Below are positions 3,401 through 58,375 of a stretch of DNA of 64,000 bases, piece after piece. Below the pieces are notes generated by a model. It was not told the DNA's origin and did not search any database. It saw nothing but the letters and a program-made list of their open reading frames with translations. This stretch comes from Eledone cirrhosa. Lineage: Eukaryota. Within the stretch, counting starts at the first letter, position 1. Every line of letters starts with the position of its first letter. The translations under genes and the position numbers were made by a program. The stretch lies in contig OZ024742.1 of the NCBI GenBank assembly GCA_964016885.1, positions 47,368,001 to 47,432,000 on the forward strand, read 5' to 3'.

Positions 3401-4199
3401 GTATCCCGAATCTTCCATATCGAACTTATCGGTTATTTGGTTGATTGTAGACATATTCTACGTGTGACGGTATTTAACGATAGTTATAGCTCTAATTTAT
3501 CTGAATTATAGAGCCCTCTGCCGCTCATCTCGAATTTTGTTTATCGTGAACTCGTGCGCCGATTTTTCGATACTCGATTATTCTACTATATTTAGCTCTA
3601 GACTTAGCTATTGACCAGTTAATTTTATTGTTCATTTTTTGTCGATTCTATTAAATGATGAATAGCCCCTGTTTATTTTAACATGTCTATTGAGCACTCT
3701 TATTCGATATGTGTTTTTTGCCACACTTTTCCGAATATTCTTTTGCGGATATAAAGGTTATCTCCCTTGCTGAAATCCATGTGCGTATTTTTAGCATGGG
3801 TCTTGTCTTTCTATCCATTCGGACGAAGCTCGTTGATAAAGTAACTCCAGTCCCCCGCCATCTGTAAGTCTTATATTTTTATATGAGCTGATAGATGACG
3901 GTTTAAGGATTTACAGAAACCCAAGAAGCTAGATATTCCATCTCTCTAGTGGGTCCGGGTATGCATTTTACATTCATTTCATTTATTGATTTATTGATAT
4001 TTTATCTGAGTGTCCCGAATCTTCCATATCGAACTTATCGGTTATTTGGTTGATTGTAGACATATTCTACGTGTGACGGTATTTAACGATAGTTATAGCT
4101 CTAATTTATCTGAATTATAGAGCCCTCTGCCGCTCATCTCGAATTTTGTTTATCGTGAACTCGTGCGCCGATTTTTCGATACTCGATTATTCTACTATA
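3401..4199 (+). mobile_element. Non-coding mini-element (family H): 1.3 tandem units of a 609-bp monomer, pseudo-LTR-like
   Basis: 3404-3590 is repeated at 4013-4199, flanked by TA tracts, with a hammerhead-like three-way junction at 3854-3959. Confidence 0.6.
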
Positions 4200-4308
4200 T
4201 ATATATATATATATATATATATATATATATATATATATATATATATATATATATATATATATATATATATATATATATATATATATATATATATATATAT
4301 ATATATAT

Positions 4309-7300
4309 GTCTTGGGTATGACATTAAACTACATCCAGTGGCAAGGCTCCAGTTCGGGAGTTCAGGAGATGTGGGGAATATGGAGTTACCCCTTAGTTGT
4401 CATGACTCCCAGGTCTGCCCTGGCCCGGGGTGGTAGTACCTGTTAGGGCTCCATTTATGGGTTAAATAACTACCTTATTCGAGTGGCGCCGGTAAGGTAT
4501 TGTCAGCCATTGAAAAGAAATATGGAGAGTCGATCTAACAGCACTAGGGTTAGAGCCCCTAATTACACTGTCAAGGAGCAGCCTGGTCGTTATGACTCTG
4601 CTGGCTTAGAGCCACAGAGAGGGCCAGTGGATGATGGATCAGCTGTCTCTGAGACAAATATAAAGAATGCAGTTTTGTCCTGCAGAAGAGCCATCAAAAT
4701 GGGCACTTTGAATGTGAGGACTATTCGAACGCTGGAGAAGAGAGAGGAGTTGGGACATCTGTTCGAGGAGAGTGGTATACAGATACTTGCGATCCAAGAA
4801 CACAGGATTCTACACGATGAGCCCGTGAGGAGTGTGATGATCGGGAAGAAGAGCCAGCTCATCACTACATCGGCAGTGAAGAACACAACAAATGCTGCAG
4901 TAGGAGGAGTGGGTTTTGTGTTCAGTGCAAAAACCAATCTGTTGGTGAGGGAAATAATGCCTATCTCCCCGCGAGTGTTGAGAGTGACCTTCAATGGAAA
5001 CCCAAGACTGACAGTCATCTCAGCCTATAGTCCAACCGAGGGGGACAGTGATGTGAATGCCGAGGAGTTCCATGAGGAAGTGTGTAGAGCTGTCAACACC
5101 ACTCAGGCACACAATATCCTGCTTGTTTTGGGGGACTTCAATGCACATCTGAGTAAGGAGGGCGGTGAAGATCCTTGCTGGTACTTCCATAACAACACCA
5201 ACCGAAATGGAAGACTACTGAGAGACACCCTGCTGGAGGCGAACTTGATGGCGACCAACCTAGGGTTTAGGAAGAATCTGGGGAAGATGTGGACCTACAT
5301 CTCAGATATGCACCTGTCCAAGTCCCAGATTGATTTCATTCTGGTGAGGAAAAAGTGGCGGAATAGTGTTCTGAACACGGAACCATACAGCTATTTCAGT
5401 ACACTGGGTAGTGACCACCGGCTTGTTATGAGTGAGGTCCGCGTGAGCTTAAGAAAGAGCAAGGCTCAGCCCCGGAGAACAATCTATGACTGGGGAGCTT
5501 TCAAGGAAGATGATAAGCTACAGGAGAGGTTCACAGTGGAAGTGAGAAACAGGTTTAGTGCTCTGTGTGGAGAGTCAGAGGAGAGAGAGATTGGATGGAC
5601 TGAGGAGAGTGTGACGAGGAGGTACGGGCACTTCACCAATGCAGTGGCGAAAGCAAGTGAAACCCTGGTGCCGAGGAAAAAGAACAAAGGGAAGCACGTC
5701 AGCTCTGCAGACCCAAAAGTGTGTGCAGCCAGAGAACACCTGAAAGCTGCCAGGGACCAATTCTATGCTGATCCTACGGAGGAGAGGATGGAGACTGTGG
5801 AGGTGATGAGGGAAGAGCTCTGTACCGCTTACACTGAGGTCAGAGAGGAGGCACTGATAGAGAAGATCAGAAGTGTGGAGAGAGCGGTTGACAGATCTGG
5901 ATGTAAGGAGAGCTGGATGATCATCAACGAGATCACAGGGAGGAAGAAAAGGTGTTCGAGTCAGATCCAGGGAACGGGGCCCGAGGATAGGAAGAGGAAA
6001 TGGCTAGACCATTTTAGGACCCTACTAGGAGAGCCACCCTCCACAGCCCAGAGCACTGGGGAGATCAGGCGGCTGTTTGAGGAACTGGATGTTGAGACAG
6101 AGCCCTTCACCAGAGAGGAGCTTCAGAGAGCCAAGAAGAAGATCAAGGAGGGCAAGGCTCATGGAGAAGATGGAGTAGCATCAGAGGTGATGAAGTGGTG
6201 TGATTTTGATGATATCATCCTGGGGTTCTGTAACGGGGCACTGGAGAAAGGAGTTGCCCCGAATCAGTGGAGGATCAGTAACATCGTCCCAGTGCCAAAG
6301 AAGGGAGATCTCTCTAACACCAACAACTACCGGGGGATCTCACTGACGTCACTTGTGGCAAAGACCCTCAACAGGATGATTCTTAACAGGATCCAGCCTG
6401 AGATGGAGAAGAAGCTCAGGGACAACCAGAACGGCTTTAGAGAGGGTAGATCAACCACCAGTCACATCCTGATGCTGAGGAGGATATTAGAGGGAGCTAG
6501 AGCAAAGTGCCTTCCTGCGGTCATGGTTTTCATTGACTTTAGGAAGGCCTTTGATTCTGTGGACCGTTACTGCCTGATGAAGATCTTACAGGCTTATGGA
6601 ATCCCCAAGAGGATAGTGGACCTGATATCACTGCTCTACACCAACACCAAAGCCCAAGTCATTACACCTGATGGGATGACAGAGTTCTTTGAGATACTGG
6701 CTGGAGTGCTCCAGGGAGATACATTGGCTCCCTACCTTTTTATCATCGTAGTGGACTATTGTATGCGCCTTGCACTGGAGAAACACCAGGACTCTGGCTT
6801 TACTGTAGCACCGGCTCAGAGCAGGAGAGTTGGGGCGAAAAAGGTATCGGATGCTGAATTTGCCGACGACATAGTTTTGGTGACAAATACAGTGAAGGAG
6901 GCAGAGGATTTGATGCGGGAGGTTGAGACTGTGTCGATGAGTGTGGGGCTGAGAATGAATGAGACTAAAACAAAATATCTGGTAGAGAATGTTGAGAAGC
7001 CAGAGGGGATCACTAATGTAGGCGGGAAGCCGCTGGAATTGGTTGAGGACTTCCTGTATTTGGGAGCAAAGATTGGGAATACGGAAGATGATGTGGTTGA
7101 GAGGAAGAGCAAGGCCTGGGCGGCGTGCCACAGCTTGAGATCGGTGTGGAAGTCGGACCTTCGTAGAGACCTGAAAATCCGCCTCTTCATTGTTGTAGTG
7201 GAGTCTGTGCTGCTGTATGGGTCTGAGACTTGGACACTGACCAAGAGACTCACTCAGATGGTGGACGGGTGCTACACGAGAATGCTGAGGATGGCTCTGA

Positions 7301-7624
7301 ACATTAATCAGTATACACTGAGGATGAAAAACTCAGAGCTGTATGGGAGCCTCCCAAAAGTCAGCTCAAAAGTGACACAGAGGAGACTGAGGTTGGCTGG
7401 ACATGCTCACCGACATCCAGAGTTGACATTGCACTCCGTGCTCCTTTGGGAGCCCCTACATGGACACACTGGAAGAGGAAGACCAAGGTTAACATATGTT
7501 GATGCCCTAAGGACAGACACTGGTCTGTTGGAGACGCAGGACATGGCAGCGATAATGAGGGACAGAGACCGCTGGAGAGAACTCGTCCATGGATCTCGGG
7601 AATTTTACCCGCCTTAGATAGATA
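4309..7624 (+). mobile_element. Apparently full-length RTE-clade LINE inserted in (TA)n
   Basis: Single long ORF with a ~200-nt leader, almost no 3' UTR ending in TAGATAGATA, TA tracts on both sides, and GC content well above the flanks. Confidence 0.9.
4483..7617 (+). CDS. APE endonuclease-reverse transcriptase polyprotein (RTE-like); first in-frame ATG at 4522
   Basis: APE motifs GTLNVRT, LAIQEHR, SAYSPT, LGDFNAH, QIDFIL, SDHRLV. RT motifs PKKGDL..NYRGISL, QNGFR, FIDFRKAFDSV, GVLQGDTLAPYLF, FADDI, FLYLG. RTE-type C-terminus GRGRPRLTY. Uninterrupted. Confidence 0.95.
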   Translation: MAPVRYCQPLKRNMESRSNSTRVRAPNYTVKEQPGRYDSAGLEPQRGPVDDGSAVSETNIKNAVLSCRRAIKMGTLNVRTIRTLEKREELGHLFEESGIQILAIQEHRILHDEPVRSVMIGKKSQLITTSAVKNTTNAAVGGVGFVFSAKTNLLVREIMPISPRVLRVTFNGNPRLTVISAYSPTEGDSDVNAEEFHEEVCRAVNTTQAHNILLVLGDFNAHLSKEGGEDPCWYFHNNTNRNGRLLRDTLLEANLMATNLGFRKNLGKMWTYISDMHLSKSQIDFILVRKKWRNSVLNTEPYSYFSTLGSDHRLVMSEVRVSLRKSKAQPRRTIYDWGAFKEDDKLQERFTVEVRNRFSALCGESEEREIGWTEESVTRRYGHFTNAVAKASETLVPRKKNKGKHVSSADPKVCAAREHLKAARDQFYADPTEERMETVEVMREELCTAYTEVREEALIEKIRSVERAVDRSGCKESWMIINEITGRKKRCSSQIQGTGPEDRKRKWLDHFRTLLGEPPSTAQSTGEIRRLFEELDVETEPFTREELQRAKKKIKEGKAHGEDGVASEVMKWCDFDDIILGFCNGALEKGVAPNQWRISNIVPVPKKGDLSNTNNYRGISLTSLVAKTLNRMILNRIQPEMEKKLRDNQNGFREGRSTTSHILMLRRILEGARAKCLPAVMVFIDFRKAFDSVDRYCLMKILQAYGIPKRIVDLISLLYTNTKAQVITPDGMTEFFEILAGVLQGDTLAPYLFIIVVDYCMRLALEKHQDSGFTVAPAQSRRVGAKKVSDAEFADDIVLVTNTVKEAEDLMREVETVSMSVGLRMNETKTKYLVENVEKPEGITNVGGKPLELVEDFLYLGAKIGNTEDDVVERKSKAWAACHSLRSVWKSDLRRDLKIRLFIVVVESVLLYGSETWTLTKRLTQMVDGCYTRMLRMALNINQYTLRMKNSELYGSLPKVSSKVTQRRLRLAGHAHRHPELTLHSVLLWEPLHGHTGRGRPRLTYVDALRTDTGLLETQDMAAIMRDRDRWRELVHGSREFYPP

Positions 7625-57902: not shown

Positions 57903-58088
57903 ACGAAGTAGGTGTGGTAAAGAACCAGACTGACCATAACGCACCAGAGTACTCAATACTTATGGTAGTAGAATGGGTAATAGGAAAATCTTTGACCCCC
58001 ACGGCAGAGCTCAAGCCGTTTCGACGGCTATTTCTGAAATAACCGTCGATACGGCTTGGGCTCTGCCGTCGGGGTCAAACATGTTCCG
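57903..58088. mobile_element. Fold-back mini-element, family E
   Basis: Palindrome centred near 58035; homologous to 15039-15232 in the opposite orientation. Confidence 0.75.
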
Positions 58089-58163
58089 ATATATATATAT
58101 ATATATATATATATATATATATATATATATATATATATATATATATATATATATATATATATA

Positions 58164-58375
58164 GTGGTAGGACACTGGAAGGTATTATCTGTAGTGGTAG
58201 AGCACTCAGTCCATGGGACGAGTTAGGTAGAAGTGGTTACACAACAGTTAGTTCCCCATACAGAGAACAATTGTTTCACCTTATCGGACCCTCAGCTAGT
58301 AATACGAGCTGAGGATCCGCTAAGGTGAAACAACTGTTCTCGGTATGGTGAACTAACTGTTGTACAACCACTTCT
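58164..58375. mobile_element. Fold-back mini-element, family D; hammerhead 58305-58342 (plus) and a mirrored degenerate copy
   Basis: Arms meet at ~58301; cgag CTGAGGA tccgctaaggt GAAA caactg TT ctcg. Confidence 0.75.

Follow-up and report, generated by a model that had tools for sequence, protein, structure and literature searches.

The window, meaning the whole 64,000-nt stretch of Eledone cirrhosa DNA that was analyzed, contains two large insertions of Penelope-like elements (PLEs) together with short loci assigned to families D, E, F, G, H, and I and to a 525-nt unit. PLE A forms a giant head-to-head insertion (18003-29388) with an ORF on the plus strand (23383-25779) and hammerheads at 18206 (minus strand) and 29185 (plus strand). 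Its Hydra-type assignment is based on the DKT motif, the CxCX5C linker, the CxxC/CxH motifs, the lack of a CCHH motif, and the (TA)n target, all of which were found. PLE B is a head-to-head/tandem insertion (36218-43380) with pseudo-LTR (pLTR) hammerheads at 36420 (minus), 39109 (plus), and 43119 (plus); several of the B copies of the motif are impaired. A CX2-5CxxC linker and cysteines between GIY and YIG, as in Neptune or Nematis elements, are present in B and at locus L181. Neither the PLE A protein nor the endonuclease-bearing ORF of B matched a Pfam family, and the homolog search returned mostly unnamed proteins.

Head-to-head PLE 3' ends are found at E1 (15040-15232), where the left arm is tail-less and the right arm is tailed, as well as at E3 (57903-58088), F (43443-43951; tail of 168 nt), G1 (20748-21043), G2 (52598-53005; tail of 88 nt), and D2 (58164-58374; tail of 64 nt). 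The 525-nt non-LTR retrozyme (55683-56975; tail of 114 nt) consists of head-to-head partial tandems, and E2 (44475-44612) is an inversion with hardly any overlap between its tailed arm and its tail-less arm. The original prediction of fold-backs thus holds for 8 of the 11 named loci and fails for D1, H, and I, which are not palindromic. D1 (57676-57810, plus strand) is a solo PLE-D 3' end; the adjoining segment 57585-57675 does not belong to family D. I (11430-11652, minus strand) is a solo, 5'-truncated 3' end, and H (3401-4195, plus strand) comprises 1.3 copies of a 609-nt noncoding tandem unit, 5'-truncated and with its 3' end at (TA)n. A further G-related PLE 3' end, not named in the original prediction, lies at 53246-53790 on the minus strand, with a complete hammerhead at 53596.

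A strict type I hammerhead descriptor gave 11 matches in the window, against a mean of 1.2 and a maximum of 6 in 30 local dinucleotide shuffles, so the hammerheads reported earlier are real, even if two of the 11 matches (346 and 8262) resemble chance. A looser descriptor gave 13 matches with a perfect core. The match at 1782 on the minus strand is doubtful, lying antisense within an LTR-type element and having a poor stem II. When descriptors were combined with reading by eye, about 20 motifs had both core halves and most helices, in agreement with the predicted number of about 20 complete cores, but at the named loci completeness was overestimated: a complete in-cis hammerhead is present at only 5 of 11, namely H (3833, plus), I (11619, minus, minimal), G2 (52784, minus, and 52907, plus), the 525-nt unit (55928, minus, and 56319 and 56844, plus), and D2 (58309, plus, minimal and complete in the right arm only). 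The three E loci retain only 3' hammerhead halves, and the core of D1 is mutated. In F and G1, the fold-back falls directly on the core, and the 5' strand of stem I is missing (from both arms in G1, and cut by the junction in F). Core variants are U3:A8 in E and H and U4C in F. Among the 150 of 161 Rfam matches in the window that were listed, none was a hammerhead, and a separate Rfam scan of H returned nothing. The Rfam scans were dominated by miRNA models matching TA-rich sequence.

The embedding of the elements in (TA)n was confirmed in an unbiased genome sample of 800 kb in 80 stretches, where TATATA or TCTCTC lay within 16 nt of 86 of 91 family 3' ends, against a background of 9%. The window itself is ordinary in this respect, with a TA-tract density of 107 per 64 kb versus 113 per 64 kb in the genome sample and an element density within about two-fold of the genome average. 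Family E alone contributed 30 pieces to the 800 kb, which extrapolates to about 10^5 per genome.

In longer genomic copies of D, E, F, G, and I, a GIY-YIG endonuclease ORF lies upstream on the same strand. Such an ORF was found at 9 of 30 loci for D, at 4 of 30 for F, and at 2 of 25 for I, the parent link of the latter two families resting on few long copies. For E, a short query gave an upstream ORF at 1 of 30 loci, and a query with the untranslated region (UTR) gave the endonuclease together with the hammerhead arm at 24 of 30. For G, none of the first 20 loci had an upstream ORF, one copy reached it among 15 further stretches (14 picked for longer arms and 1 incidental), and UTR-seeded loci showed a match of the endonuclease region to the PLE A protein query in 28 of 30 cases and a hammerhead arm downstream in 24 of 30. 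Because these searches were seeded with the UTR of one long copy, the E and G counts report linkage, not frequency. Matches to the reverse transcriptase (RT) region were obtained for D, for E (9/30), for G (16/30), and weakly for F (L090), and the I copies stop short of this region. Among natural long copies, those of E, F, G, and I gave descriptor matches to a type I hammerhead; that of D was read by eye only, since its 2-bp stem II escapes the strict descriptor. The 5' truncation, variable in extent, the inverted truncated copy, and the one-sided tail were all seen in copies of D to G and I, whose 3' ends are fixed and lie at (TA)n. We conclude that these five families represent 3' ends, truncated on their 5' side, of protein-coding PLEs. 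The same holds for the unnamed neighbors at 53596, whose family shows a same-strand endonuclease upstream in 2 of its 4 other copies, and at 46181.

By their motifs, the parents of D, E, F, and G appear to be of Hydra type, with the C-terminal Hydra motifs counted at 4, 11, 3, and 19 of 30 loci, respectively, and the parent of I appears to be of Neptune/Nematis type. The CxCX5C linker was noticed by eye for D and F, uncounted by pattern search, and the D to G sequences end before the DKT region. The insertion site of I is a microsatellite behind a broken A-like (Hydra-type) RT-GIY-YIG ORF (11843-14886, minus strand). This ORF is a neighbor and not the parent: the proposal that I is its 3' UTR was rejected, as the sequence upstream of other I copies is a different one and includes a different endonuclease.

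These results bear on the view that all the named families are independent, ribozyme-only, noncoding mini-elements whose fold-back is native. Most short copies are indeed below 350 nt and devoid of an ORF, truncation points are clustered (126 to 146 nt in E), and the 525-nt and H units are noncoding and tandem. Yet colinearity with GIY-YIG ORFs refutes this view for five families, the junctions vary from copy to copy, and a complete hammerhead is absent from most short copies, including all three E loci, which makes it very improbable as a general account. The headline of the original prediction, a community of noncoding fold-back mini-elements, is therefore unsupported, and the description of D, E, F, G, and I as noncoding was wrong. 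Of its two proposed identities, PLE 3' ends applies to five of the seven families (D, E, F, G, and I) and ribozyme-only passengers to two (the 525-nt unit and H); the suggested check for attachment to an RT ORF gave an endonuclease for the former and, among the top-scoring copies examined, none for the latter. What had been presented as distinct fold-backs in TA tracts corresponds to the known inverted 5'-truncated copy of PLEs with a tail on one side, at a TA density equal to that of the genome sample.

The 525-nt unit and H are non-LTR retrozymes, that is, noncoding tandem units with type I hammerheads. Elsewhere in the genome, the 525-nt unit forms a tandem array of 18 full matches at 525-nt spacing over 9.9 kb, and H forms arrays of up to 7 full units with a variable 5' end and a fixed 3' end; at the window locus, H shows a 186-nt direct repeat, and its longest ATG-initiated ORF is 52 aa. 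The hammerhead of H (3828-3960, plus strand), with long stems II and III and a predicted cleavage after GUC at 3955, was missed by canonical-core searches and was found once a U3:A8 core was allowed. In four aligned sequences, its core is invariant except at N7, and a compensatory change was judged by eye. In ten sequences of the 525-nt unit, both partners vary in 2 of the 6 base pairs of stem II, and the covariation score was reached by none of 500 shuffles, a test inflated by relatedness and by a structure drawn from the same sequences. Minimum free energy folding formed stems II and III of H without stem I, and that of the isolated 525-nt motif did not give the full three-way junction. No colinear PLE ORF was found for either unit in 25 + 25 top-scoring loci and 2 long stretches, and the loci examined yielded neither a parent PLE nor a parent pLTR. 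At locus L200, a Neptune-type fragment adjoins the 525-nt unit and is the leading candidate for such a partner. The 525-nt and H units likely use the same PLE enzymes, and their hammerheads would cut out unit-length RNAs. All 11 distinct ends of H were at one site and no head-to-head H insertion was seen, so the case for PLE-type mobilization of H is made by its tandem structure, truncation, and TA targeting.

Among 134 palindromes collected from the assembly, 121 combine one tailed and one tail-less arm; the other 13 comprise 1 tailed/tailed pair, 1 tail-less/tail-less pair, and 11 unclassified cases. For the survey of E and F, the references were trimmed to avoid microsatellite matches. The unbiased 800 kb gave the same picture, with 21 of 24 palindromes tailed/tail-less (21 of the 22 classified; P about 3e-6), and the 525-nt retrozyme obeyed the rule in 12 of 12 palindromes. 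Tail length is fixed within each family, between 43 and 168 nt. Solo ends in the 800 kb were tailed in 27 cases, tail-less in 19, and other in 15, these classes including arms of long palindromes missed by the pairing rule.

We considered it extremely improbable that the palindromes are fold-back artefacts of the library or the assembly, given that the arms differ in sequence, with unshared variants outnumbering shared ones, and end at family-specific offsets on many chromosomes. Furthermore, 124 of 134 palindromes are bordered by TA/TC runs at both outer ends (a loose criterion with a 29% background), and G1 is present in one arm of the larger A palindrome and absent from the other. A biological alternative, already published as a model for rotifer Penelope elements (PMC3846280, in its accessible portion), accepts the parents described above and has the inverted arm arise by snap-back, with self-priming at a hairpin and copying of the first strand. 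Such a process would fit the junctions, which are concentrated on or close to hairpins and the hammerhead, and the private variants common to both arms (16-39%, versus 2-7% between insertions). Nevertheless, in 60 of 130 palindromes it is the tail-less arm that extends further upstream, the arms do not overlap at all in 8 of 130, and tail-less ends are frequent among the solos (19 of the 46 classified), so that we regard snap-back as possible but doubtful. The shared variants could also stem from later gene conversion, and the arm lengths from later deletions at the palindrome center.

The tailed/tail-less pairing and the family-fixed tails favor twin priming from two RT start sites, and the frequency of tail-less solo ends suggests that the inner site acts as a start site of its own. 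We propose that the endonuclease would cut both strands of a (TA)n tract and that the RT would prime on each cut strand, one cDNA starting at the outer site and the other at the inner site, 43 to 168 nt apart depending on the family, probably on the same RNA. Synthesis of both cDNAs would end prematurely, in many cases at the hammerhead or at a hairpin close to it, and the two ends would then be joined, in most cases leaving little gap or overlap. Most hammerheads in short copies would be passive pseudo-LTR remnants. The proposed mobilization by PLE RT-GIY-YIG proteins is well supported by the anatomy of the elements. We are thus largely confident that D to G and I are truncated PLE ends, that the 525-nt and H retrozymes likely share their enzymes, and that head-to-head insertions likely reflect two priming events at two fixed sites. 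Our belief is evenly divided on the stronger statement that every PLE head-to-head insertion results from twin priming on a single RNA by a PLE dimer that cuts both (TA)n strands and starts at two family-fixed sites, so that the tail is always on one arm and never on the other, with noncoding retrozymes carrying the same two-site signal. If true, such twin priming would explain in one step the long-unexplained inverted pLTR and tail, and it makes a prediction on what an in vitro reaction should yield.

Inverted truncated copies, tails, TA targets, U3:A8 cores, and retrozymes are already published, and the flagged elements, as flagged, are of little importance, being the expected debris of an active and diverse PLE load. 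The pairing rule is additional to the published features of PLEs; a literature search whose coverage largely excluded subscription papers returned no paper stating it. Its near-absolute character in six PLE families and one retrozyme constrains models of PLE inverted insertion, the formation of which is an open question according to the accessible part of Craig et al. (2021, PMC8557442). Besides, the two retrozyme families and the natural U3:A8 and U4C cores are candidate substrates for cleavage tests. In vitro, the Poseidon element PAc cuts and extends both strands of an AT-rich target and starts RT at two internal sites bounding the tail, without strand bias in the start site and with the hammerhead dispensable for insertion (Frangieh et al. 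2024, PMC11167929); the accessible text of that study does not report that both start sites must be used together in a single inverted insertion.

The Hydra clade of endonuclease-containing PLEs, which includes Hydra-1_Obim of octopus, is described in the accessible part of PMC8557442 as having a C-terminal GIY-YIG domain, DKT, a CxCX5C linker, CxxC/CxH around the C-terminal E and N, (TA)n targets, hammerheads, an inverted 5'-truncated copy, and a tail at one end. PLE A shares the Hydra motifs and the parents of D, E, F, and G the C-terminal ones. Differences, drawn from described features only, are that a single genome here contains at least five divergent families, that the tails measure 64-168 nt instead of the 30-40 nt quoted there, that 3' UTRs reach about 1.8 kb in G and 3.4 kb in A, and that there are hammerheads with a long stem II. 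The minimal hammerheads of PLEs, as accessible in Cervera and de la Pena (2014, PMC4209133), are of type I with a palindromic helix III, occur as heterogeneous families within a genome, and include dual motifs on opposite strands, separated by 100-700 bp; most were ascribed to truncated PLEs, and Cercyon PLEs have a U3-A8 core. Our elements agree in being type I and heterogeneous, in the palindromic helix III, in their dual opposite-strand motifs and truncated PLEs, and in the U3:A8 core, but here this core occurs in two unrelated families (E and H), of which H is a retrozyme, and F has a family-wide U4C core, a variant not found in the accessible text of that paper. Finally, metazoan non-LTR retrozymes are noncoding tandem units, each containing a single type I hammerhead, and have been put forward as nonautonomous PLE derivatives (PMC7229834; bioRxiv 10.64898/2026.07.22.740005; both as accessible in part). 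The 525-nt unit and H share the noncoding tandem structure and the type I hammerhead per unit; their lengths of 525 and 609 nt exceed the 170-400 nt first described and fall within the 51-972 bp range of the bioRxiv report. In contrast to these known retrozymes, the 525-nt unit is also found in PLE-style head-to-head insertions that obey the tail rule.

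The head-to-head palindromes of these elements pair their arms almost strictly. Each family has two fixed 3' end points, spaced by 64 nt in D, about 78 nt in E, 168 nt in F, 88 nt in G, 43 nt in I, 58 nt in the coding Penelope-like element (PLE) lineage B and 114 nt in the 525-nt unit; arms ending at the outer point are tailed and those ending at the inner point tail-less. Among 134 distinct palindromes, many from loci picked with tail-containing queries, 121 are tailed/tail-less, one is tailed/tailed, one tail-less/tail-less and 11 are unclassified. An unbiased sample of 80 evenly spaced 10-kb stretches (800 kb) holds 24 palindromes (21 tailed/tail-less, one tailed/tailed, no tail-less/tail-less, two unclassified). 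Of its solo ends, 27 have the tail, 19 lack it and 15 are of other types. Mixed pairs exceed the expectation for independent arms, which is at most half (P about 3e-6). Palindromes of the 525-nt retrozyme are tailed/tail-less in 12 of 12 cases, and no head-to-head copy was seen among the copies of H.

Twin priming is the simplest account of this pairing, of the shared variants and of the reach of the arms. RT would start at one site per strand, both primings probably taking place on one RNA, and would often stop early, either at the hammerhead or at a hairpin close to it. Variants common to both arms of one insertion amount to 16-39%, compared with 2-7% from one insertion to another. In 60 of 130 cases the tail-less arm extends further upstream than the tailed one, in 8 of the 130 there is no overlap between the arms, and most E truncation points lie 126-146 nt from the end. 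In vitro, according to PMC11167929, a PLE protein cuts each of the two strands and extends it, and PLE RT starts at two sites bounding the tail. Snap-back, in which self-priming makes the inverted arm (proposed in PMC3846280), is the less favoured origin. Part of the evidence for twin priming could also be produced by central deletions and gene conversion at a later time, so we rate it only as the more probable of the two. The palindromes are seen here in assembly sequence alone, yet the two arms of one palindrome differ in sequence and arm ends are family-specific, which argues against an artefact.

Coding parents were found for five of the families predicted to be non-coding, by own-genome searches in which each family yielded 266-3,079 candidates, the best 40 were scored and 20-30 loci were examined. 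An RT-GIY-YIG region lies upstream of D in 9/30 loci, with the stop codon about 170 nt ahead of the query; a coding region precedes F in 4/30 loci and I in 2/25, the latter with a Neptune/Nematis-type endonuclease and a stop about 340 nt upstream. The short E query gave a coding region in 1/30 loci, and the UTR of a long E copy recovered endonuclease and hammerhead arm together in 24/30 (RT in 9). For G, the first search gave no upstream coding region in 20 loci; 15 further stretches included one long ORF-reaching copy, and a re-search matched the endonuclease region in 28/30 loci, with RT in 16 and, about 1.1-1.7 kb beyond the ORF, the hammerhead arm in 24. The D, E, F and G parents have C-terminal motifs common to the Hydra clade, and PLE A, the other coding lineage of the window, has the full Hydra motif set. 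As described in PMC8557442, this clade is (TA)n-targeting and hammerhead-bearing, with an octopus member listed.

The 525-nt unit and H fit non-LTR retrozymes. The former occurs as an array of 18 full matches within 9.9 kb and the latter in arrays reaching 7 full units; neither has an ATG ORF >53 aa, a noteworthy PLE protein match or a colinear PLE ORF in the loci examined. At one genomic locus (L200, G000:C4:38100500-38110400), the 525-nt retrozyme stands head-to-head with a Neptune-type PLE endonuclease represented by its 5'-truncated 3' end, the composite forming tandem repeats of 2.55 kb; co-insertion with a mobilising partner, or a nested insertion duplicated later, is possible.

The original prediction counted about 20 complete hammerhead cores. 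A strict type I descriptor permitting three core variants gave 11 matches in the window, against a mean of 1.2 (maximum 6) in 30 shuffles, and two of the 11 look like chance; a looser descriptor gave 13 perfect-core matches. By descriptors and reading by eye, both halves of the core and most of the helices are present in about 20 motifs. The number is therefore roughly right, but most of these motifs sit in A, B and unnamed neighbours rather than in the named families. Complete in-cis motifs occur at five of the 11 named loci (H, I, G2, the 525-nt unit and D2); the three E loci all retain the 3' half alone, stem I is without its 5' strand in F and G1, and the D1 core is mutated. Fold-backs or inversions make up eight of the 11 named loci, and TA targeting was borne out, with 86 of 91 family ends at TA against a 9% background. 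The left part of the supposed D1 (57585-57675) was rejected as family D sequence and matched none of the other loci compared.

The predicted hammerhead of long E copies has a U3:A8 core with variable N7, that of H conserves this core type in four sequences, and a U4C core marks nearly all of the F copies shown. In the 525 motif, both sides of stem II change in 2/6 pairs among 10 sequences; this covariation is only suggestive of the predicted structure, because the structure was drawn from those same sequences. Energy folding of the isolated motifs gave stems II and III in both H and E, and did not return the full junction of the 525 motif. Stem II of the PLE A hammerhead spans about 115 nt. 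In A, B, D, F, G, I and the 525-nt unit, helix III takes the form of a short palindrome, a feature linked to dimer cleavage in PMC4209133.

The window, from a 3.0-Gb animal genome, is not special in density: its TA tracts number 107, compared with 113 per 64 kb over the 80 sampled stretches, and it has nine D/E/F/G/I insertions against about five expected (60 pieces per 800 kb). PLE A has its ORF region at 23383-25779 and arms at 25779-29388 and 18003-23547, and its 3' UTR, about 3.6 kb in length, includes long TA/TG microsatellites that are found in both arms; the named homologs of its protein are from Argonauta, which points to a cephalopod. A broken A-like ORF region lies at 11843-14886 and that of PLE B at 36630-42978. 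At 46020-46584, a B-related 3' end with a degenerate hammerhead (46181) precedes a nearly perfect inverted copy in tail-to-tail arrangement (149-nt arms, 99%, TA-tract centre); its relatives have an endonuclease about 170 nt upstream. A further hammerhead family (2858-3100, minus strand, core at 2977, TA at its end) is related at 75-91% to sequences at other loci, one of them a palindrome. A LINE (4447-7617, plus strand) keeps an uninterrupted 1,056-codon AP-endonuclease/RT frame and is flanked by TA tracts. A non-coding 2.12-kb element at 719-2839, inserted in (TA)n, has direct terminal repeats of about 370 nt and, on the plus strand, a TG start, a primer-binding-site-like stretch past the left repeat, which may resemble a tRNA-Trp 3' end, and a purine tract ahead of the right repeat. 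It matches end to end at 92-100% in most of 20 loci examined and is probably a young LTR element, non-autonomous and likewise TA-targeting. Another repeat, about 100-190 nt long and dispersed (3167-3353, 10440-10632, 48599-48695, 49308-49679, 51123-51836), occurs in many copies at 70-95% identity and is possibly a SINE.

The families described here are members of published kinds; as families they are new or unverified. Inverted truncated copies, one-sided tails and TA targets are described for PLEs in PMC8557442, and PLE-derived retrozymes in PMC7229834 and bioRxiv 2026.07.22.740005. No statement on the strictness of tailed/tail-less pairing was found in those portions of the PLE, hammerhead and retrozyme literature that were searched. 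PLE hammerheads, U3-A8 cores, hammerhead pairs on opposite strands at distances of 100-700 bp, and an attribution of such hammerheads to truncated PLEs all appear in PMC4209133; the predicted E and H hammerheads have a core of this U3-A8 type.
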